This document shows, in pieces, positions 24,146 to 39,943 of a DNA stretch of 64,000 nucleotides (its first letter is position 1; every line of letters begins with the position of its first letter). The notes under the pieces were generated by a model. That model was not told the DNA's origin. It searched no databases and was given only the letters and a program-made list of their open reading frames with translations. The position numbers were made by a program, and so were the translations under genes. The stretch spans positions 224,001 to 288,000 of the forward strand of contig CAWAWS010000033.1 of NCBI GenBank assembly GCA_963785725.1. Reading direction: 5' to 3'. Source of the DNA: an uncultured delta proteobacterium (GTDB lineage: Bacteria > Myxococcota_A > Polyangia > Palsa-1104).

Positions 24146-27100
24146 ACGGCGCCACCGCCGAGTTCGATCGCGACCGCTTCCAGACGATCCGTCGGCTCGG
24201 CGTCGGGGGCATGGGCGTCGTCTACGAGGTGCTCGACGCCAGCGCAGCGTGCGCGTGGCGTTGAAGACGCTGCTCAAGGTGGACGCCGCCGGGCTCTACC
24301 GCTTCAAGCGCGAGTTCCGCGCGCTCGCCGACATCGCGCACCCGAACCTCGTCTCGCTCTACGAGCTGTGTCGAGCCGACGCGTGGTTCTTCACGATGGA
24401 GCTCGTCGACGGCGACGACTTCGTTCGCCACGTGCTGCAAGTCGCGGCGACGCGCGCGGCCGAGCCACGCGCCCGTCGACTACCTGGCGTGCACCGTCGC
24501 GCGACGACCTGGCGAGGCGGGCGTGGCGACGAGGGCGAGCTGTCGGCGGGGCGCGCGGCGTCGCCCGCCGACTTCGAGCAGCGTGCGCGCCGGCGCTGCG
24601 CCAGCTCGCCGAGGGCATGCCGCGCGCTGCACGCCGCCGGCAAGGTGCACCGCGACATCAAGCCGTCGAACGTGCTCGTCGCGCCGCGACGGGCGCGTCG
24701 TGCTCCTCGACTTCGGCGCTCGTCGAGCGAAGCGGCGCCCGGCCGGCGGCGCAAGGCGGGACGACGGACATCGTCGGGCACGATCGCGTACATGTCGCCC
24801 GAGCAGGCGTCGGCGCGAGGCGACCGGTCGGGCCGCGTCCGATTGGTAAGCGTCGGGCGCTGCTCTTTCGAGCGTCGATCGGGATGCTGCCGTTCGCCGG
24901 GACGGCGCTGAGAGCGTCCTCGAGCTCCGGCATGCACATGAGCGGCCGTCGCGCCGTCCGCGTGCGTGGACGGCTTGCCCGAGGACCTGAACGCGCTGTG
25001 CATGGCCCTCCTGCGCCCGACCCGGCGAGCCGGCCCGGGGCGAGCGACGTCCTGCGGCGGCTGGGCGGCGCGGCGCCCAGCGCGCCGTCCCCGCGCCGCC
25101 GCTCTCGCGCGGCGCGCGCGCGGCCGGCAGCTTCGTCGGCCGCGACCGCAGCTCGGGACGCTCGGCGGCGGTGCAAGCTCGAGGCGGCCGCGGACGGCGG
25201 TCGCGCACGGTGCGGCGCGGCCGAATCGGGCATCGGCAAGGCGCGCGTGCTCGATCATTTCCTGCAGGAGCAGGCGGCGGCGCACCCGACGACGACGTCG
25301 TCCTGCGCGGCCGCGCTACGAGCGCGAGTCGGTGCCCTACAAAGCGCTCGATCCGCTCGTCGATTCCTTGTGTCACCACCTCGGTCGGCTCGGGCCGCAC
25401 GAGTCGGCGGCGCTCTTGCCGCGGCATTTGTGGGCGCTGGCGCAGCTGTTTCCCGTGCTCGGCCGCGTCGAGGCCATGGCGCCGGTGCCGCACGACGACG
25501 CCGCGCAGCCGGAGCCGCGCGAAGTGCGCCGCCTGGCGCTGTTGGCGCTGCGCGAGCTGCTGGCGCGCATCGCCGATTGCCGCCTCGTCATCCTGGCCAT
25601 CGACGATCTGCAATGGGGCGACGCCGACTCGGGCGCGCTCTTGGCCGAGGCGCTGTCCGGTGACTCGGAGCCGATGTCGATCCTGCTCGTGCTCGCGTGT
25701 CGCGGCGAAGAGCGGGCGCGCAGCCCGTTCTTGGGCGCCTTTCGCGTCTCGCGGAACGTCGACGTGCGCGAGGTCGAGCTCGGTCCCTTGCCGCCGGCCG
25801 AGACGCGCGAGCTGGCGCGACGTCTCCTGCACGCCAGCGACAGCATCGTCGGCCCGACGGCGCAGCTGGCGCATACCGTGGCGCGCGAATCGGGCGGCAT
25901 TCCGCTGTTCGTCGGCGAGCTCATGCATTATCTGCCGAGCCTGCAAGCCAGCCGCGCCGAGAGCGGCGAGCGCGCCATCAAGTTCGAGGAGATGCTGGCG
26001 CAGCGACTGCAACCGCTGTCGGCGCACGAGCGGCGGCTGCTCGAGGTCGTGGCCGCGGCCAGCCGGCCCATCAGCGAAGATATCGCGGCCAAAGCCGCCG
26101 AGCTGCCGCCCGAGTCGCGCCAGCTGTCGTTCGATCGGCTGCGCGCCGCCAAGCTCGTCCGTCGCAGCGCCGACGGCGGCACGGTCGAGACGTTTCACGA
26201 TCGCATCCGCGAGGCGCTCTTGCAGATCATCGACGCCGGCGTCCTGCGCGAGCATCACCTGCGCCTCGCGCAGACGCTGGAAGAGGCGGACGAGGTCGAT
26301 CCCGAGCTGCTCGCCGCCCACTATGTCGCCGCCCATCAAGCCGACAACGCCGGCGTGTATGCGCTGCGCGCGGCCGATCAGGCGATGCAGGCGCTGGCGT
26401 TCGATCGCGCGGTGCGGCTCTATCGGCTGGCGCTCGAGCTCTTGCCCGACGATGACCGGGAGCGGCCGCGGCTGCACGCCGGCCTGGCCGACGCGCTCAG
26501 CTACATCGGCCGCTGCTCCGAAGCCGCCGTCTCGTACCTGAAAGCGGCGGAGATGGATCCGACCGATCGCAACCGCACCTGGCGACGATTGGCGGCCGAG
26601 CAGCTGCTCAAGAGCGGTCACCTCGACGAAGGCTTCGACGTCCTGCGCTCGCTCTTGACGAGCCTGGGCGTGACCTTGCCGCCGACGCGCCGCCGCGCCA
26701 TCGTCGGCGTCATCGGCAAGCGGACCTGGCTGCGCACGGTCGGCATCGGCTTTCGCCGCCGCGCCTCGTCGACGCTGACGCCGCTGGAAGCCGAGCGCAT
26801 CGACACCTGCTGGGGCCTCGGCACCTACTTGAGCTCGATCGATCCCATCTTGGGCGCCTATTTTCAGGCGAGCAGCTTGCATTTGTCGCTGCGCGCCGGC
26901 GATCCCTTCCGCATCACGCGCGCCCTGTCGAGCGAAGCCGCTTATTACTCGTTGCGCGGCGAGCGCGGCCGCCGGCACGTCGACAAGCTGCTCGGCGCCG
27001 CCCGCGAGCTGGCCAAAGAGATCGATCGGCCCTACACCTTCGCCTTCGTCGACTTGGTCGAGGGCATCATCGCCTTCATGTCCGAGGAGCGCTGGCACAA

Positions 27101-28007
27101 ATCGTTCGAGCTGTGCCAGCGCGCCGAAGCGGTGTTTCGCGAGCGCTGCCGCGGCGCCAGCTGGGAGATCACCAACGGCCAGTTCTTCTCGCTCAACGCG
27201 CTCATGCAGCAGGGCAAGCTGGCGGCGCTGGCGTCACGGCTGCCGACGGCGTTGGCGGCGGCGCGCGACTTGGGCGACCTCTTCGCCGACAGCTTCTTGC
27301 GCTTTCGCTTCTCGTCGATGGTGTGGCTGGCCAACGATCAAACGGCGCACGCGCACGAAGAGAACGAGCAGCTGCGGGCGCGCTTCTCGGCGCGCGACTT
27401 CTTCATCCAGCATTATTGGGATCGCCACGCCGACGTGCAGCTGATGATGTACACCGGCGACGGCGCCCGCGCCTGGCAGCTGACGCAGGAGCTGTGGCAG
27501 ACGCTGCGCAAGTCGCTCCTCCTGAAGACGCAGTTTCACCGCATCGACGCGCTGTTCCTGCATGCGCGGGCGGCGTTGGCGGCGGCCGAGCAGCTGCCGG
27601 CGGGCAGCGAGCGAACGCAGCTCTTGCGCGTGGCCGAGCACGACGCCGCCTGGCTCGGACGCCATCAGCCGGTGCGCGCGCGGGCGATGGCGCTGCTCGT
27701 CGGCGCCGGCAGTCGCGCGCTGCGCGGCGACGCCGAGGGCGCCATGACCGCGCTCTACGCCGCCGCCGACGGCTTCGACGCCGCCGCGATGTCGCTGCAC
27801 GCCGCCATCTGCCGCCGTCGCTACGGCGAGATCGTGGGCGGCGAGCGCGGCCGCTCGCTCGTCGTCGCCGCCGACGACTGGATGGCCGGCGAGCAAATCA
27901 AGAGCCCGACGCGCTTCGCACGCCTGTTCGCGCCTGGGACTGCGGCTGCGGAAGTGACGGCGCGTACGTCTTCCACAGCCGATCCCAGCTATGGTCGAGC
28001 ACCATGA
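24142..28007 (+). CDS. Ser/Thr kinase - AAA/STAND-type ATPase - TPR-like protein (many frameshifts in 24240-25320)
   Basis: ATGA overlap with the lipid kinase; LGVGGMGVVYE, VALK, HPNLVSLYEL, HRDIKPSN, GTIAYMSPEQ in shifting frames; ESGIGK Walker A, YERESVPYKALD, LAIDDLQWGD Walker B, SGGIPLFV, HDRIRE. Confidence 0.85.
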
Positions 28008-30898: not shown

Positions 30899-31570
30899 CT
30901 AAGGTAGCGGCTCGGCGGCGACGATCGCGAGCTCGGCGCGCAGGCGGCGCAGCGCCAGCCAGCTCGTGCGGTCGTATTCACCGCGCAGATGGCCTTGGCG
31001 ATCGACGAGCAGCAGGCGATCGTCGGCGAAGAGCGGCGCGCCAAATTTCGCGCGCTCGGACTGCAGGCGGCGCCAGTCGACGTCGAGCGCGTCGAGCAGG
31101 CTGGTGACGTCGGGCGGCGTGCCGCTGGCGATCGACCACGGCGGCGTCGCATCGACGGCGGCGGCGACGGCCGGCAAATGCGCGGGCGTGTCTTCGTCGG
31201 GCGCCGCGGTCAACGTCACCACAGCGACGTCGCCACGGCCGCGCACGTCGGCGGCCAGCGCGCGCATGTCGGCGAGCGCGCGCGGCACGTGCATGACGTC
31301 GTGGAAGAAGGCGAACCCGATGACGACGACGCGGCCGGCCCAGCTCGCGCGCGTCAGCGGCCGCCCCGCTTGGTCGACGAGCGTGAACGGTGGCAGCGGC
31401 GCGCCGATCGGAATCACGGCCCGCGCCGCGCTCAGCCGCCACAGCCATGCCGTGCCGGCGACGAGCACGAGCGCGACCCCGACCGCGAACGCGCGCCGCC
31501 ACCGCCGCGCGCGCCGCCGGCGGTCGCGCGTGGCCGCCTCCGCCGCGCGCACGGCTGCCCGAGAGCCCAT
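30899..31570 (-). CDS. SCO1/SenC-fold protein lacking the canonical CxxxC and His copper ligands
   Basis: TM anchor; PPFTLVDQAGRP, GRVVVIGF, PDEDTP, W...SG, LLLVDRQGHLRGEY; no Cys anywhere in the ORF. Confidence 0.8.
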   Translation of the reverse strand: MGSRAAVRAAEAATRDRRRRARRWRRAFAVGVALVLVAGTAWLWRLSAARAVIPIGAPLPPFTLVDQAGRPLTRASWAGRVVVIGFAFFHDVMHVPRALADMRALAADVRGRGDVAVVTLTAAPDEDTPAHLPAVAAAVDATPPWSIASGTPPDVTSLLDALDVDWRRLQSERAKFGAPLFADDRLLLVDRQGHLRGEYDRTSWLALRRLRAELAIVAAEPLP

Positions 31571-31609
31571 GTCGCTTCATACCAGATCCGTGTAGGCTCG
31601 GTAGTTAGC

Positions 31610-32113
31610 ATGCGTCAGCGGTGGCACGGGCTCTGCGCGCTCGCCGTGTACGTCACGGCGGCGGTCGTATGCCCGGCGCTGCACTTGTCGCATCACGCCG
31701 TCGCCGGCGCCGATCACACACACGGCGGCGCCGCGCCCGTCGCCGCCGCGCCCGGCGCCGCCGCCGTCGACCTGGCGGCGCTCGGGCTGGCCGACGTCAG
31801 CGCACCCGCCGTCGTCGACTGCACGCTGGCCGCGCTCACGCTCGCCGACTGCGACACGCCGGCGGACGGGCCGCGCCACTTCGGCGACGACACCGGCCGC
31901 GACCAGCCGCCGCCGCCCGCGCCCATCGACGTCCGCCACGGCGCCGGCAGCCTGGAGCACCTCGGCGCCCTTGCCCTCGCGTCGAGCCCGGTCACGCTGC
32001 CGCCGCCGCTGCTGCGGGAGACGCGCCTCGCCATCTTCGCCCGCCCGCCGCTCCGCTCGCTCGAATTCGCGCTCGCGCAGCACTCGCGCGGCCCTCCGTC
32101 GCTCGTCGTCTGA
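31610..32113 (+). CDS. His-rich DUF2946/CruR-like leader protein with C-terminal RGPP arrest motif
   Basis: Hydrophobic N-terminus, HLSHH..DHTH, C-x9-C, RHGAGSLEH, Pro-rich spacer, SRGPP near the stop; 53 nt upstream of the TonB-dependent receptor. Confidence 0.75.
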   Translation: MRQRWHGLCALAVYVTAAVVCPALHLSHHAVAGADHTHGGAAPVAAAPGAAAVDLAALGLADVSAPAVVDCTLAALTLADCDTPADGPRHFGDDTGRDQPPPPAPIDVRHGAGSLEHLGALALASSPVTLPPPLLRETRLAIFARPPLRSLEFALAQHSRGPPSLVV

Positions 32114-32166
32114 CGCCTTTTTTCGTCATTCGATGATCGCGCGCCGTTTACGGCGCTGGAGGATTC

Positions 32167-34916
32167 ATGCGTATTCATGCATGGCGGTGCGCCGCCGTGT
32201 CGGCCGCGTTGTGGGCCATGCCCGCGCTCGCGGAAGAGCACGCAACACCCACGGCGGCGCCGATTTCACCGGCGGCGCCGCGAACGGCCGCGCCGGTGCT
32301 CGTCGAACGCGTCGAGCCCGTCTATCCCGAAGCGGCGCGGCTCGCCGGAATCGGCGGCGTCGTCAGCTTGCAGCTCGAAGTCGGCGTCGACGGCAGCGTC
32401 GGCGACGTCAAGGTCGTGCGCTCGGCCGGCCTCGGGCTCGACGCCGCCGCCATCACCGCCGCGCGGCAGCTCAAGTTCAAGCCGGCGCTGCAGGACGGTC
32501 AGCCCATCGCCGCGACGGTGCTGTTCGACCAGCGCTTCATCGTGCGCACGCATTTGGCGAGCGAGACGACCGTCGACGCGCCCGAAGCCACCTCGCCGGT
32601 GCCGGCCGAGCCCGCGCCCGCGCCCGAAAAGCCAACGACGACGACCGCCAACGGCAAGCCGACGCGCAGCTACGCGTCGACGGTCGTCGGCCGCGGCCCG
32701 TCGAGCGCCGCGTCGGCCGAGACCATCCGTAACCTCGACTTCGACCTGCGCCCGAAGACCGCGCCCAACGACATCTTGCGCATCGTGCCCGGCCTTCTGA
32801 CGGTGCAACACCAAGGCGGCGGCAAAGCGGACCAGCTCTTCTTACGCGGCTTCGACGCCGACCACGGCACCGACGTCGGCATCTTCGTCGACGGCATCCC
32901 CGTCAACATGCCCTCGCACGCGCACGGCCAAGGCTACGCCGACTTGCACTGGATGATCCCCGAAGCGCTCGATTCGATCGAGGTCGTCAAGCATCCTTAC
33001 GATGTTCGCTTCGGCGACTTCTCGACCGCCGGCGCCGTCAACCTCATTACGCGCAAGGATTTCCCCGAATCATTCGCGCAGCTCATGGTCGGCGGCTTTC
33101 CCACGCTCGGCTGCTCGGGCGGCGCCGCGCAATGCAAGCTCGTCGCGCAAGAGCGCGTGCTCATCGTCGTCGCGCCCAAGCTCAAAGGGTTGGGCCTCGC
33201 GACTGCATCCGTGGATCGCGGCCGACCTCGCGCGCGATCAAGGTCCTTTCGTCGCCGCCGAGAACCTCGATCGCTACAATATCTTCGCCAAGCTCACTTA
33301 CGATTTATCGTCGAACGACGAAATCGGCACGTTCTTTCAGGCTTATGGATCGCAATGGATCGGCTCCGGGCAGATCCCCGAGCGCGCCGTCGCCGCCGGA
33401 CAGATCTCGCAGTTCGGCTCCGAAGATCCGTCGGAAGGCGGGATGACGCAGCGGCAAATGTTCACACTGTTCTTCAAACACCGCACGGCCGACAGTGAAT
33501 TCAAGATCAGCGCTTATGTCACTCGCTATAGCTTGGCGCTCTTCAACGACTTCACGTTCTTCTTGCAGCATCCGCTCACCGGCGACGAAATGGAGCAGGA
33601 CGACAGCCGCACGTTTACCGGCGTGATTGCTTCGTGGAAGAAATATTCGCGCTGGCATGGCATCAGCTTCCGCCATCAAGTCGGCGTCTCCATGCGTTAC
33701 GACGGCATTCACCTCAACTTATGGGACGTCGAATCGAGCGCCGTCAACGACGGCGGCAAGAGCTCGGGCGGCGGCGACTTCCGCCAGCGGCTCGGCTTGC
33801 GCGCCTCCGCCGACGAGCTGTTGAACATGATCGGTCCGGGCGGCGCCGTCGAGGTCTTGAACCTCGGCAGCAATGACGACATCAGCGAGGTCAACTTGGC
33901 CGCCTTCGTCGAAGAGGACGTCGTGTGGACCAAATGGCTGCGCACGATCGTCGGCATGCGCATGGACTATTTCGGCTTCAATGTCTCCGACGGCGCGCAA
34001 GTCTACGAACCGGGAACGATCAATACGTCGGGGACGCGGCAAGAATCGGTGCCGAGCCCGAAAGCGAGCGTCATCATCACGCCGCTACCGGCCTTCGACA
34101 TCTATCTCAATTACGGCTCCGGCTTTCACTCCAATGACGCACGCATCTCGGTTATTCCGCAGACGTTACGCACGAGCGACGGCTCGCGCGTGCAAGTGTT
34201 GCCGCGCTTTTATGCGGGCGAAATCGGCTTTCGTTACACTTACGGCCAATATTTCACGGCGGCGACGGCTTTATGGGCGAGCTATCTGCAAAATGAAGTG
34301 ACGATAGACGCCGATAACGGCCAGTTCTCGATCGGCGATCCGACGCGAGCGACTGGGCATCGACGTCGAACTGCGCGCGCATCCGTGGCGTTGGCTCTAT
34401 TTCGATTACGACATCGCCTATGCGCATTCGCAGTCGCTGCCCGATCACGGCAATGGCGGCGAAATCGCGCTCGCACCCAAGCTGTATATGACGGGCGGCC
34501 TGTCCTATTTCGGCACGGGCCGAATGACGGGGCTGCGCGCGCGCTTCGGCATGCGCTATTTGAGCGGCAATCCCATGTTCGACACCAACTCGCCCGAATA
34601 TCAGGCGCTGGCGAGGAGCAATCCGCAGCAGGTCATCGGCCAGGACTATACGATCTTCGACTTGTCGGCCACCTATCGTTATCGCTGGATGGAAGTGGGA
34701 TTCAATATTCAAAACCTATTCAACGCCACCTGGCGCGAGGCGCAGTTCGGAAACGAGAGCTGCACCTATCAAGAGGTCTATAACCCGAAGAATCCGAATT
34801 ATAACGTCTGCGGAATTACGCAGCCGGCGGCGCAACGCACGGGTGTGCCCGATGTCCATTATACGCCGGGCGTTCCATTCAATCTGCAGGTCATGTTGAA
34901 GGCGTATTTCCTATGA
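32167..34916 (+). CDS. TonB-dependent receptor with N-terminal fused TonB-C domain (two +1 frameshifts near 33190 and 34350)
   Basis: RBS GGAGG; signal peptide; EPVYPEAAR..GIGGVVSLQLEVGVDGSV..FKPA; plug QHQGGGKADQLFLRGFDADHGTD, NMPSHAHGQGYADL; barrel YGSGFHSNDAR, NIQNLFN, terminal LKAYFL. Confidence 0.9.
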
Positions 34917-35986
34917 AGCCGAATATGCGATTCGTCGTGCTCGCGAGCGGCTTGTTATGCGGCGCTTGCGGCGTCGATGGCTCGGGCAGCCCGACGACCG
35001 GAAATGCCAACTTATATCAAGGCGCGGGCTCCCAATGGACGGCCAAGCTGGCGAATGATTCGACGTTCATGCTGCTGCATTTCTCGCAATTGGGGCAGAC
35101 GACGGCCGATCAGCTCATCAACGGGACCGACACGATCGATGCCAATGGCTTTACCGCATTGACGGTCACGTCGTCGGCCGGCAGCGGCGAGCCGGCGGAG
35201 GGCGCGACCTCATCGGCTGTGCAGATCGCCGATTCCTTATTCGTGCTCGCGCCATTTACGGCCGGCAATTTGATACCGATGATTCCCGCTGACAGCTGCC
35301 CGGGCGGAGTCGTGAACGCCAATCTCGTGAAAGTGAAAGTCGCCGCCGACTGGTCGCCGATGACGAACGACGCGACGGCGACCTTCACTTATGATTCGAC
35401 GACCGGGCTGGCGACTTTGCCGGCGCGTTATAGCGCGAATGATCCGGCGACGGCGATCGCCGGCGGCGAATCGTCATTGGGCGCCGGCGCCTGCAGCGAC
35501 GGCGCGTTGACGGCAGACAGCGGCGCCGAGCTGTTCTTGAGCGCGGGCGGCGTCGTCGTGCATACGCAGCCGGCGAGCGAGGCGCAAGCGCTCGACGAGA
35601 TCTATGTCGGGCTGCCGCAGACCGACGCGGCCGTGGCGCCGCTGAGCTTGGCCGGCAGTTATTACGGCTATTTATTCGTCGACGAAGCGACGCCCATCGT
35701 TAGCCCGGTCATCGTGACATTGGCGGCCAATGGCGCGACGTTGGCCGGCGGCGCAACGGCGACGAGCGGCACCGGCGGTGCGCACATGACGCTGACGAGC
35801 GCCGGCGCGGCCAACGGACTAATCATCGGCACGATCGATACGACGAGCGCGAACGGAGGCGGCGCCGCGCAACCGCTGAGCTGCGCCGCCCAAATCGGCG
35901 TCGGCGCCGCGATGCAAACCGTGCTCGCCTGCGCCGGCACGAGCCAAGACCTGCGCTTCGTCAGCCTCATCCTCTTTAGTCACTGA
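34913..35986 (+). CDS. Hypothetical lipoprotein translationally coupled to the receptor
   Basis: ATGA overlap with the receptor stop; signal ending LCGAC; beta-rich Ser/Thr/Gly sequence with paired Cys. Confidence 0.75.
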   Translation: MKPNMRFVVLASGLLCGACGVDGSGSPTTGNANLYQGAGSQWTAKLANDSTFMLLHFSQLGQTTADQLINGTDTIDANGFTALTVTSSAGSGEPAEGATSSAVQIADSLFVLAPFTAGNLIPMIPADSCPGGVVNANLVKVKVAADWSPMTNDATATFTYDSTTGLATLPARYSANDPATAIAGGESSLGAGACSDGALTADSGAELFLSAGGVVVHTQPASEAQALDEIYVGLPQTDAAVAPLSLAGSYYGYLFVDEATPIVSPVIVTLAANGATLAGGATATSGTGGAHMTLTSAGAANGLIIGTIDTTSANGGGAAQPLSCAAQIGVGAAMQTVLACAGTSQDLRFVSLILFSH

Positions 35987-36252: not shown

Positions 36253-36413
36253 GTTGTCAGGCAGGGAACCTGGTGAAAATCCAGGATTGCCCCGCAGCGG
36301 TGAGCAGGAACGACCGCCGTCACACGCACTGGCTTCGGCTGGGAAGCGACGGCTAGTAGAAGGCGAATCGCCGCGATTCGTCATGCCTGCGAGTCCGAAA
36401 ACCTCCTGACGAC
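36253..36413 (+). promoter_or_regulatory. Cobalamin (AdoCbl) riboswitch
   Basis: P1 GTTGTCAGG/CCTGACGAC; AGGGAA-cctGGTGaaAATCCagg-aTTGCCCCGCAGCGGTG; GCACTGgcttcggctGGGAAG; B12-box AGTCCGAAAACCT; upstream of a B12-independent RNR. Confidence 0.93.
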
Positions 36414-36542
36414 CTGCGCCGAAAGGGCGCGGATTTGACCTGAATCTCCGAGGGGAGATGGCAGGCCCGCCGAAACGCCGCGCCTGTGCGGCTGTCGTCG
36501 TGGCCTCCCGTTGTCCGCGGAAACTCGACGGAGGGATCGGCG

Positions 36543-38936
36543 ATGTTGAACGCGTCCATTACACCCATCATTTCCCCGCCCACCGGACAGCGCGAGACGG
36601 ACGCTTATTCGTCGAGCATGCGCGTGCGTAAGCGCAATGGCACGTTCGAGTCGGTCGATCTCAATAAGATCGTGCGCGCCGTCGGCCGCTCGTGCGCCGG
36701 ATTGAGCAACGTCGATCCCATGCGCGTCGCGACCAAGACCATTAGCGGCCTCTATGACGGCGCCACTACGCGTGAATTGGATCAGCAGTCGATTCAGACC
36801 GCCGCGTCGTTGACCGCCGAAGAGCCCGATTATGCGCGTTTGGCCGCGCGGCTATTGGCGACCTATATCGATAAGGAAGTCGCCGGGCAAGAGATTCAGT
36901 CGTTCTCGCAGTCGATTGCCGCCGGTCAGCGGCACGGGCTCATCGGCGACCGCGTAGCGCAATTCGTGGCGCTCAACAGCCGCAAGCTCAATGACACGAT
37001 CTCGCCGACGCGCAATCAGCTGTTCGAATACTTCGGCCTTCGTACACTGTACGATCGTTATCTGCTGAAGAATCCGCAGACGCGTCAGGTCATCGAGACG
37101 CCGCAGCACTTCTTCTTGCGTGTGGCCTGCGCGCTCTCGGAGACGATGGCCGACGTGCTCGAGATGTATCGACTGTTCTCGTCGCTGGAGTACCTGCCCA
37201 GCTCGCCGACGCTGTTCAACGCCGGCACGCGCCACGAGCAGCTGTCGTCGTGCTTTCTGCTCGACTCGCCCGCCGATCACTTGGAAGACATCTATCGCAA
37301 ATACACCGATGTCGCGCTGCTGTCGAAGTTCGCCGGCGGGATCGGGCTCGCTTATCACCGCGTGCGCTCGCGTGGCTCGTTGATTGAATCGACCAACGGT
37401 CATTCGAACGGCATCGTGCCTTGGCTGAAGACGCTCGACGCGTCGGTGGCCGCCGTCAATCAAGGCGGTAAGCGCAAGGGCGCCTGCTGTGTCTATTTGG
37501 AGACGTGGCACGCCGACATCGAAGAGTTCCTCGAGCTGCGCGACAACACCGGCGACGAGGCGCGGCGCGCGCACAACCTCAATCTCGCCAATTGGGTCTC
37601 CGATCTATTCATGCAGCGCGTCGAAGCGGACGGCACGTGGTCGCTCTTCGATCCCAAAGAGACGCCGCACTTGGTCGACCTTTATGGCGAGGATTTCGCG
37701 ACCGCCTATGTGGTCGCCGAAGCCGCGGGACTGGCGAAGAAACAGGTCAAAGCGCGCGAGCTCTATGCGCGCATGATGCGGGTGCTGGCACAAACGGGAA
37801 ATGGTTGGATGACGTTCAAAGACGCGTCCAATCGTAAGTGCAATCAGACGGCGGAAGCCGGACGCGTCGTGCACTTGTCGAATCTGTGTACGGAAATTCT
37901 CGAAGTCACCAACGACTCCGAGACCGCCGTTTGCAATCTGGGCTCGATCAATCTGTCGCGGCATCTCGAGAACGGGAAGCTGTCGTACGAGAAGCTGCGC
38001 GCGACGGTGCGCGTGGCCGTGCGTCAGCTCGATCGCGTCATCGATTTGAACTACTACCCGATTGCGACGGCGGCGGCGTCGAATGGCCGCTGGCGGCCGG
38101 TCGGTCTCGGCATCATGGGCTTGCAGGATCTGTTCTTTCAGCTGCGTTTGCCCTTCGATTCCGTCGAGTCGCGCGCGCTGTCCCGCTCGATTCAAGAGGA
38201 GATCTATTATGCGGCGCTCGATGCGTCGTGCGAATTGGCGGCGGCGCGCGGCGCGCATCCGGCGTTCGCCGAGACACGCGCCGCGCGTGGCGAGCTGCAG
38301 TTCGACGCTTGGAACGTCGTGCCCGACGACAATGCGCGTTGGCAGGCGCTGCGCGAGCGCATTGCCAAGCATGGACTGCGCAACTCGCTGTTGATCGCCA
38401 TTGCGCCGACGGCGACGATCGCGTCGATCGCCGGCTGCTACGAATGCATCGAGCCGCAGACGTCGAACCTCTTCAAGCGCGAGACGTTGTCGGGCGACTT
38501 CCTGCAAATCAATCGTTACTTGGTCGAAGAGCTGCGTGCGCTCGGCTTATGGAACGAGCACGTGCGCAATCGCATCAAGATCGCCGAAGGCTCGGTGCAG
38601 ACCCTCGGCGAGCTGCCGGCGGACGTGAAGCAGATTTATCGCACGGTCTGGGAAGTGCCGATGCGCTCGCTCATCGATATGGCGGCCGATCGTGGCGCCT
38701 TCATCGATCAAAGCCAGTCGCTCAATCTCTTTGCCGAGAGCCCCAATATCGGCGCGCTGTCGTCGATGTATTTCTATGCGTGGAAGCGCGGGCTCAAGAC
38801 GACCTATTACCTCCGCTCGCGGCCGGCGACGCGCATTGCCAAGACGACGGTCGACGATTCGAGCCCGAAGGTCAGTGAAACGGCGGCGGTCGCCTGCTCG
38901 CTCGAGAACCCCGAAAGCTGCGAAGCCTGCCAATAG
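36543..38936 (+). CDS. nrdA: Class Ia ribonucleoside-diphosphate reductase alpha subunit
   Basis: RBS GGAGGG; ATP cone VRKRNG; PSSPTLFNAG, QLSSCF, SNLCTEI, AVCNLGSINL, APTAT, KTTYYLR, C-terminal CEAC. Confidence 0.97.
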   Translation: MLNASITPIISPPTGQRETDAYSSSMRVRKRNGTFESVDLNKIVRAVGRSCAGLSNVDPMRVATKTISGLYDGATTRELDQQSIQTAASLTAEEPDYARLAARLLATYIDKEVAGQEIQSFSQSIAAGQRHGLIGDRVAQFVALNSRKLNDTISPTRNQLFEYFGLRTLYDRYLLKNPQTRQVIETPQHFFLRVACALSETMADVLEMYRLFSSLEYLPSSPTLFNAGTRHEQLSSCFLLDSPADHLEDIYRKYTDVALLSKFAGGIGLAYHRVRSRGSLIESTNGHSNGIVPWLKTLDASVAAVNQGGKRKGACCVYLETWHADIEEFLELRDNTGDEARRAHNLNLANWVSDLFMQRVEADGTWSLFDPKETPHLVDLYGEDFATAYVVAEAAGLAKKQVKARELYARMMRVLAQTGNGWMTFKDASNRKCNQTAEAGRVVHLSNLCTEILEVTNDSETAVCNLGSINLSRHLENGKLSYEKLRATVRVAVRQLDRVIDLNYYPIATAAASNGRWRPVGLGIMGLQDLFFQLRLPFDSVESRALSRSIQEEIYYAALDASCELAAARGAHPAFAETRAARGELQFDAWNVVPDDNARWQALRERIAKHGLRNSLLIAIAPTATIASIAGCYECIEPQTSNLFKRETLSGDFLQINRYLVEELRALGLWNEHVRNRIKIAEGSVQTLGELPADVKQIYRTVWEVPMRSLIDMAADRGAFIDQSQSLNLFAESPNIGALSSMYFYAWKRGLKTTYYLRSRPATRIAKTTVDDSSPKVSETAAVACSLENPESCEACQ

Positions 38937-38944
38937 GAGCCGCC

Positions 38945-39943
38945 ATGTTGCTCGATCCCGGCATGAACTTGACGTTGCGGCCCATGGCCTATCCGAAGTT
39001 TTACGAGATGTACAAAGACGCGATCCGTAACACTTGGACCGTCGACGAGGTCGACTTCTCGACCGACACCGGTGATTTGCGTTATCGCATGACCGACGCC
39101 GATCGCCACTTGATTCAGCGCTTGGTGGCGTTCTTTGCCACCGGCGATTCGATTGTCGCCAACAACTTGGTGCTCAATCTCTACAAGCACATCAATGCGC
39201 CGGAAGCGCGGCTCTATTTGTCGCGTCAATTGTACGAAGAGGCGCTGCACGTGCAGTTCTATTTGACGCTGCTCGACACGTACGTTCCCGAGCCGAGCCA
39301 GCGCGCCAAAGCGTTCGCGGCGGTGGAGAAGATTCCGTCGATTCGTCAGAAGGCCGAGTTCTGCCTGAAATGGACGGACTCGATTCAGAATCTGCAGCGG
39401 CTGGAATCGCGCGCCGATCGCAAGCAGTTCCTGCTCAACTTGATTACGTTCGCCGGCGCGATCGAGGGCTTATTCTTCTTTGCCGCGTTCGCCTATGTCT
39501 ACTTCCTGCGTTCGCGCGGTCTCTTGCATGGTTTGGCGGGCGGCACCAATTGGGTCTTTCGTGACGAGAGCGCGCATATGGCGTTCGCGTTCGAAGTGGT
39601 CAATACCGTGCGTCACGAAGAGCCCGACCTCTTCGACGACGAGCTGAAAGCGGCCGTGGCCAAGATGATGGCCGAAGCGGTCGACTGCGAGATGCAGTTC
39701 GCCGAGGATCTGCTGAGCGGCGGCGTGCCTGGGTTGTCGGTGCGCGATATGCGTCAGTATCTCGAATATGTCGCCGATCAGCGCATGGTGACGCTGGAAT
39801 TGCCGCGGCTCTATCACGCGAAGAATCCGTTCTCGTTCATGGAGCTGCAGGACGTGCAGGAGCTGGCGAACTTCTTCGAGCGGCGCGTCTCGGCCTATCA
39901 AGTCGGCGTCGAAGGCAGCGTCGAGCTCGACGCCGCGTTTTAA
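38945..39943 (+). CDS. nrdB: Class Ia ribonucleoside-diphosphate reductase beta subunit
   Basis: FFATGD, EEALHVQFY (radical Tyr present), EGLFF, RDESAH, NFFERRVSAY. Confidence 0.97.
   Translation: MLLDPGMNLTLRPMAYPKFYEMYKDAIRNTWTVDEVDFSTDTGDLRYRMTDADRHLIQRLVAFFATGDSIVANNLVLNLYKHINAPEARLYLSRQLYEEALHVQFYLTLLDTYVPEPSQRAKAFAAVEKIPSIRQKAEFCLKWTDSIQNLQRLESRADRKQFLLNLITFAGAIEGLFFFAAFAYVYFLRSRGLLHGLAGGTNWVFRDESAHMAFAFEVVNTVRHEEPDLFDDELKAAVAKMMAEAVDCEMQFAEDLLSGGVPGLSVRDMRQYLEYVADQRMVTLELPRLYHAKNPFSFMELQDVQELANFFERRVSAYQVGVEGSVELDAAF

Follow-up and report, generated by a model that had tools for sequence, protein, structure and literature searches.

What controls the translation of a TonB-dependent receptor gene that is preceded by a small open reading frame (ORF) encoding histidine clusters and a C-terminal Arg-Gly-Pro-Pro (RGPP) motif? 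This question is raised by a locus in a 64,000-nucleotide stretch of DNA from an uncultured delta proteobacterium (GenBank assembly GCA_963785725.1, contig CAWAWS010000033.1, positions 224,001 to 288,000), which is called the window here. The leader ORF (31610..32113, + strand) encodes 167 amino acids, and its stop codon is located 53 nt upstream of the receptor ATG at 32167. Comparison of homologous loci indicates that the leader, a candidate metal-sensing arrest peptide, is very likely a metal-responsive arrest switch. For the more specific reading, in which the nascent chain would sense nickel and control translation of the receptor, we estimate a probability of about 0.6.

The leader ORF

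The initial annotation had described the 167-aa ORF with its His clusters (HLSHH, DHTH, and HGAGSLEH), RGPP codons at 32087-32098, a 53-nt gap to the receptor, and a TGACG/CGTCA hairpin at 32111-32128, and all of these were confirmed in the sequence. It had also called the leader His-rich; the clusters are present, but with only 10 His in 167 residues the enrichment is modest. Profile searches gave no Pfam or NCBIfam match for the leader protein.

An N-terminal hydrophobic segment (approximately residues 7-24; 31628..31681, +) closes in a conserved P22-x-L24, of which P22 is invariant in a 21-row leader alignment. AlphaFold predicted a helix at residues 2-31 (predicted local distance difference test score [pLDDT] of 87-95) and the remainder with low confidence (overall pLDDT, 65.7; predicted template modeling score, 0.33). 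Only this first helix was reliable. His site 1 (H25, H29, H36, and H38; 31682..31723, +) lies where the membrane helix ends, and His site 2 is H110-G-A-G-S-L-E-H117 (31937..31960, +). H110 and H117 lie 50 and 43 residues ahead of R160, bracketing the CxxC-to-RAPP spacing of the copper leader CruR. The RGPP codons (32087..32098, +), 4 residues before the stop, form the predicted stall site; R160, P162, and P163 were invariant in the 21-row alignment, whose rows were chosen by the RGPP-type motif itself. The Cys residues, at positions 9, 21, 71, and 81, form no CxxC.

When the 8.9-Mb genome was cut into six-frame stop-to-stop pieces, R[AG]PP was the ending of 355 and A[AG]PP that of 363; the leader was the sole R[AG]PP-ending piece with a hydrophobic segment and at least five His. 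The features that define the CutF-like class of leaders, i.e., an N-terminal export-type signal, Pro-Pro within the last 15 residues, and a same-strand gene within 1 kb, were all found. The leader ATG has no Shine-Dalgarno (SD) sequence. A hexamer that by sequence resembles a -10 element (TAGGCT; 31593..31598, +) is 11 nt upstream of the leader ATG, and this proximity suggests a very short 5' untranslated region. TAnnnT occurred 5-13 nt upstream of the candidate start in 15 of 29 leaders, a count made without a control set. A consensus scan detected no promoter and no intrinsic terminator pattern at the locus.

Conservation of the leader family

The receptor plug was matched in 37 of 41 related genomes, and the closest named receptor records are from Polyangia or a Myxococcales bacterium. 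Among the best 30 loci, an R[AG]PP leader was directly upstream of the receptor in 23, and a 24th leader carries RAPP with a long tail after it (L025). Three contigs end before the leader region, giving a leader in 24 of the 27 loci with upstream DNA; none was found upstream of the receptor at L008, L029, and L030. A profile built from 21 leaders retrieved 611 clusters at an E value of ≤0.001 and 167 at 1e-10, and the family is unnamed. In samples across the phylum, this profile matched 15 of 401 genomes and a further profile (A3) matched 0 of 401; with 9 to 10 candidates scored per genome, no range can be derived from these counts.

In the best 150 homologs, the endings were RGPP (84), RAPP (53), another motif (3), or none (10). 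The claim that RGPP is conserved thus stood in the form of R[AG]PP, which was found in 137 of 150; RGPP itself is replaceable by RAPP, QAPP, or PQGP-stop. The initial annotation had pointed to a lack of CxxC together with many His, and this was borne out: 147 of the 150 had neither CxxC nor CxxxC, and six His columns, within PxLHxxxH, DHxH, and HGxGSLxH, were at least 0.96 conserved (0.99, 0.97, 0.96, and 0.98 in site 1 and 0.99 for both His of site 2). The linkers are very rich in His in many homologs.

A family leader with the unusual ending PRPPP was seen at L042. At L124 (61-459, +), a small His-bearing ORF ending in LLKPPQV precedes a Bacteroidetes receptor homolog and gave no match to the leader profiles. 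In three distant genomes (L170, L171, and L172), a pair of unnamed genes of 250-290 aa with lipoprotein-like starts is located downstream of the leader and receptor.

Spacing between His site 2 and the arrest motif

The distance from the second His of site 2 to the first stall Pro was 45 to 47 residues in 134 of 147 homologs, with 45 in the window leader, while the distance between sites 1 and 2 in the same homologs varied from 34 to 122. A leader was detected by profile at 18 of 73 distinct receptor loci of the genome collection, and 13 of these 18, mostly from records of Myxococcaceae and Archangiaceae, have Pro as the last residue ahead of the stop codon (QGP, GAP, or QAP). The Pro-stop leaders are homologous to the RGPP group (hhalign probability, 95%; E value, 3e-8), retain four His, and can be aligned gap-free between site 2 and the last Pro. 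The distance from site 2 to this Pro was 46 residues in all 11 Pro-stop leaders adjoining receptors. A wider search recovered 146 Pro-stop proteins. Among the 120 listed, the endings were PQGP in 85, PGAP in 20, PCGP in 7, and PQAP in 4, and CxxC/CxxxC was absent from all 120; the distance was 46 in 112 of 117 of those listed. That the same distance is kept despite the changed ending argues that site 2 must occupy a set place outside the stalled ribosome.

The Pro-stop cluster includes MXAN_7330 of Myxococcus xanthus DK1622. MXAN7331 has been described as a TonB-dependent receptor (PMC3222651), and the adjacency of the two genes rests on their locus numbers. A Pro-stop leader adjoining a receptor was seen directly in Hyalangium versicolor (L060). 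Arrest at a Pro before a stop codon is known from NSP-stop and NAP-stop peptides (PMC10987492).

Predicted folding at the receptor Shine-Dalgarno sequence

The fold of 32060-32200 had a z score of -3.42. In all five folding windows, CCUCC within the Pro-Pro codons (32093..32097, +) was predicted to pair with GGAGG (32158..32162, +), the receptor SD 4 nt upstream of the ATG, with a probability of 0.99-1.0. This helix closes a multiloop with two hairpins, one over the last codons and the stop (32098..32140, +), which contains TGACG/CGTCA, and the other immediately 5' of the SD (32141..32156, +; pair probability, 0.95-1.0). The pairing of 32093-32102 with 32153-32162 at 9 of 10 positions, as earlier proposed, is arithmetically right, but only CCUCC:GGAGG is predicted to form. 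The 10-bp helix was rejected as the favored fold, since forcing it costs 8.7 kcal/mol (-30.9 versus -39.6). Under a modeled stall, the opening cost of the window SD decreased from 3.9 to 1.2 kcal/mol.

When 31 leader-receptor junctions were folded, the SD was paired at ≥0.7 in 25, and the modeled stall cut its opening cost by at least 2 kcal/mol in 23. A gain of at least 2 kcal/mol was predicted for 22 of 28 leaders (median, 3.5) versus 9 of 82 when a mock stall was applied to ordinary gene pairs from the genome (median, 0.1), and in 23 of 28 junctions the observed gain was above the average for 20 synonymous recodings. The predictions are thus in line with the proposal that the bases sequestering the SD would lie under a stalled ribosome.

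The Pro-Pro codons serving as the anti-SD hold for the window, but not as a family rule: the SD partner was in the Pro-Pro codons in 5 of 31 junctions and in the RxPP codons in 8 of 31. CCT, which accounts for 1 of the 19 Pro codons of the window leader, was used for the first Pro in 8 of 31 junctions, above the 5.5% background yet not conserved. The register of the anti-SD slides from +4 to +21 nt across the junctions, so that no fixed register exists for counting covariation. In these models, burial of the SD by the leader end is a family tendency with a sliding register, and the Pro-Pro anti-SD is one solution among them.

Evidence for the metal

A metal other than copper had been suggested initially, and nickel now has comparative support. 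The receptor has a HAHGQGY plug motif, and its plug is 48-53% identical to those of plasmid receptors, with 48% identity to the pHCG3 receptor. The neighbors of these plasmid relatives in six regions included nikR with hypB, a HoxN/HupN transporter with hydrogenase genes, nikR, and, in two regions, HupE/UreJ nearby; one of the six had no nickel-type neighbor. pHCG3_081 and Bll6948 belong to a predicted nickel/cobalt cluster (cluster 987; PMC3400609), and we infer that the pHCG3 receptor compared here is pHCG3_081. At 46 receptor loci for which no leader was previously known, the gene upstream of the receptor was NikR in 10, and no Fur or Zur was found among the 46 upstream genes scanned. In a quick tree (177 columns; fast search only; plasmid rows on a long branch), leader-linked and nikR-linked receptors grouped together in a single starred clade of 87 rows.

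The leader and nikR were found in different genomes. None of 41 genomes from the order gave a NikR_C match, nor did any of 5 other leader genomes, and the leader was detected in 0 of 8 nikR genomes in a search that recovered 2 of 2 positive controls. From this gene context, we infer that the leader fills the role held by NikR in other lineages. Hydrogenase or urease was found in 20 of 27 leader genomes versus 3 of 14 genomes without a leader, a comparison confounded by kinship and completeness. The genome of the window has a NiFe-hydrogenase match, and urease was not found in it; a search of it for nickel superoxide dismutase gave no signal, with the controls equally silent. No Rfam riboswitch was detected at 12 leaderless receptor loci. 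Nickel is our best guess from these sequence comparisons.

Eight leaderless receptor homologs (L071, L080, L087, L088, L092, L100, L104, and L108) have a divergent TonB_C gene in common and no Rfam riboswitch.

Proposed mechanism and alternative explanations

By analogy with CruR, CutF, and arrest-peptide work, the N-terminal helix would insert into the membrane during translation, which would be arrested at RGPP once the first Pro occupies the P site. In the predicted fold, the stalled footprint would cover the bases pairing with the receptor SD, so that the SD would be freed and the importer made. His site 2, 43-50 residues from R160, would just clear the ribosome and translocon and could there meet His site 1. 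Binding of a metal, probably nickel, by both His sites may then generate a pull that ends the stall, after which the RNA would refold and receptor translation would be shut off, perhaps followed by Rho polarity. Because the target is an importer, the metal would be expected to release rather than prolong the stall. In reporter tests, arrest was strongest with RGPP (PMC12992588). A wider proposal is put forward only tentatively: that a nickel-sensing arrest switch replaces NikR across the myxobacteria, with two His sites closing on nickel at the translocon mouth and one sensor whose output, at an unchanged spacing of 46 residues, is arrest either during elongation (RGPP/RAPP) or at termination (PQGP-stop).

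Several points weigh against control by nickel at the level of translation. Stalling, metal binding, and expression of the leader are putative, being deduced from sequence and folding. The leader profile itself contains the His and arrest motifs and their spacing, which biases the homolog counts toward them; the genomes compared are related by kinship and incomplete, and the receptor is frameshifted in this assembly. The 31 junctions were folded from hand-picked starts, with 7 ambiguous junctions excluded. In only 18 of them was the SD paired with the modeled stalled footprint, in 25 it remained more than half paired after the modeled stall, and at Pro-stop junctions the gain was weak (6 of 12; median, 1.2). 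Most RAPP-like motifs of Escherichia coli and Bacillus subtilis gave no stall (PMC10987492). The export signal of CruR was dispensable (PMC9426467), so sensing outside the membrane is not assured for the leader. As to the metal, 36 of the 46 upstream genes were not nikR, and neither hydrogenase nor urease was found in 7 of 27 leader genomes, including G010 (100% complete) and G013 (90%); these two were the nickel enzymes covered in the related genomes. No nickel gene was found among the 50 neighbors scanned, of about 180 called in 20 leader regions; the neighbors of leader loci included rhodanese, ferritin, redoxins, a copper ATPase/oxidase cluster, and a resistance-nodulation-division pump, with SCO1/SenC in the window.

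The same switch could respond to cobalt, zinc, or copper instead of nickel, which we consider rather unlikely. Sites made of His only are not metal-selective. The receptor cluster was predicted for cobalt as well as nickel (PMC3400609), SCO1/SenC is divergent from the leader, a copper ATPase and oxidase adjoin the leader locus L163 and CobQ adjoins L053, and the seven leader genomes with neither hydrogenase nor urease also fit this explanation. Against it, NikR was the sole metal regulator found upstream in the receptor subfamily, the leaderless loci showed no riboswitch, and the Cys pair of copper sensors is absent from nearly all homologs (147 of 150).

Alternatively, the stall might govern Rho-dependent termination, with the hairpin being secondary. 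This mechanism has been demonstrated for CruR (PMC9426467), and the variable anti-SD register and weak SD opening in Pro-stop leaders would agree with it; we nevertheless regard it as improbable, since SD opening in the RxPP leaders exceeded both the recoded and the genome controls and the gap is 53 nt rather than the 162 nt of cruR-bfrG. Translational and Rho outputs can be compatible with each other. It is very improbable that the leader only monitors export force, as SecM does, or that it is an ordinary small membrane protein that binds metal and bears the motif by coincidence. A membrane segment at the N terminus, RGPP/RAPP motifs typical of Sec monitors (PMC10987492), and very His-rich linkers like those of metal stores would suit such a protein, but they do not account for six His conserved at ≥0.96 and a fixed distance of site 2 to two different arrest-type endings, and the downstream gene encodes an importer and no sec gene.

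Comparison with known leaders

CruR of Bordetella pertussis (Bp2923, DUF2946/PF11162) has CxxC at 90-93 and RAPP at 139-142 with 45 residues between them, and insertion of 5 residues impairs its regulation (PMC9426467). Both CruR and the leader are encoded by a small upstream ORF, with an export signal, a C-terminal RxPP, and a TonB-dependent importer downstream; in both, the metal motif is about 45-50 residues ahead of the arrest motif and the stall is predicted to mean ON. They differ in that the leader has HGxGSLxH and a second His site in place of CxxC, a receptor of a predicted nickel/cobalt subfamily, and a predicted SD hairpin across 53 nt in place of Rho termination over 162 nt. The suggested search against DUF2946 gave no match of the window protein to PF11162 at an E value of ≤1, and one of 21 family members matched at 0.73; one DUF2946 cluster ranked 22nd by language-model features (0.94). 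With no profile match and no CxxC, membership of the leader in DUF2946 was rejected.

In CutF of Rhodobacter capsulatus, the stall opens a stem-loop that shields the SD, with a spacing of 45 residues (bioRxiv 10.1101/2022.11.11.516240 and 10.1101/2025.02.05.636593). The leader is similar in its spacing and predicted stem-loop, but CutF has CxxxC, its stall is prolonged by copper, and its target detoxifies. His-only CutF-like leaders (sequence similarity network clusters 14 and 17) precede HupE/UreJ genes and were suggested to sense nickel or cobalt (bioRxiv 10.1101/2022.11.11.516240); compared with their description, the leader differs in preceding a TonB receptor. That survey kept proteins of <150 aa as a search filter, and the leader has 167. 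A translational output through an SD stem-loop and a His-only form are thus already known, and their novelty had been overstated in the initial annotation.

RGPP/RAPP upstream ORFs before TonB receptors have been called universal in Gram-negative bacteria (PMC12992588). The leader shares with them the C-terminal RGPP, the localization signal, and the TonB receptor downstream; that survey defines a motif class, and the leader family, its His ruler, and its Pro-stop branch were not met in its accessible text. The Pro-stop leaders resemble the known Pro-stop arrest peptides, in which arrest occurs after Pro as a stop codon occupies the A site and which have a Gln-x-Pro core in Myxococcales, but in the accounts consulted those peptides precede sec genes, whereas PQGP-stop and PGAP-stop here end homologs of an RGPP metal leader. 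The NikR-linked receptors Bll6948 and pHCG3_081 (PMC3400609) resemble the window receptor in the HxHGQGY plug motif, and the plug of the window receptor is 48-49% identical to those of the plasmid receptors from pHCG3 and Bradyrhizobium; the NikR-linked receptors are under repressor control with a predicted substrate, and the window receptor has a fused TonB_C domain.

In a literature search of mostly open-access text, with supplements outside the search, no account of the leader family, MXAN_7330, or any arrest peptide for nickel was found, and members may be present in the CutF and RAPP survey lists and logos. New here are the spacing ruler, preserved in leaders with two different arrest endings, the alternation of the leader with nikR, and a homolog in a model organism. 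As far as was found in the literature, metal sensing by a stalled nascent chain has been shown experimentally only for copper. Whether arrest peptides sense nickel can be tested directly on a cysteine-free leader that precedes a receptor subfamily placed beside nikR in other lineages. The natural exchange of RGPP for PQGP-stop, with the distance unchanged, disentangles sensor geometry from stall chemistry, and the homolog in M. xanthus DK1622 makes testing practical.

Receptor and neighboring genes

The downstream gene (32167..34916, +) was confirmed by Pfam as a TonB-dependent receptor (TonB_C, Plug, and barrel), with two frameshifts that had gone unreported in the initial annotation. In tblastn comparisons with two intact orthologs, the reading frame broke near 33185 and near 34350, so that three frames are needed to cover the gene. 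In contigs of related organisms, the sequence is shorter by one base at 33183 (one contig) and at 34345 (two contigs from two runs), and the orthologs in related genomes are open frames; an assembly error is therefore more probable than a pseudogene. Such breaks seem to be frequent in the assembly: a kinase gene (24249-28007) is spread over several frames, and two pieces make up the NiFe-hydrogenase large subunit (L183, 8247-10020). No NCBIfam receptor family matched the receptor above the cutoff, and its best match among solved structures was BtuB (48 bits). At L164 (5009-7039), the start of the receptor plug occurs twice in tandem, possibly as an assembly artifact.

A gene of 357 aa (34913..35986, +; gene call), with a lipoprotein-like start by eye, overlaps the receptor stop and is probably in one operon with it; it was not seen in the other receptor neighborhoods examined. 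The divergent SCO1/SenC gene (30899..31570, -; PF02630; E value, 1.1e-11) starts 39 bp from the leader start. Farther downstream, a cobalamin riboswitch (36263-36404, +; RF00174; 73 bits) is ahead of genes for the large and small subunits of ribonucleotide reductase (36486-39943). A cobalamin riboswitch before ribonucleotide reductase genes is a known arrangement.

On another contig of the same genome (C2; L182, 5210-5638, -), a small ORF with His and Cys, a hydrophobic start, and the ending LAPKSSPPLAS is located upstream of a paralogous receptor, and it is a candidate second arrest leader with a different motif.

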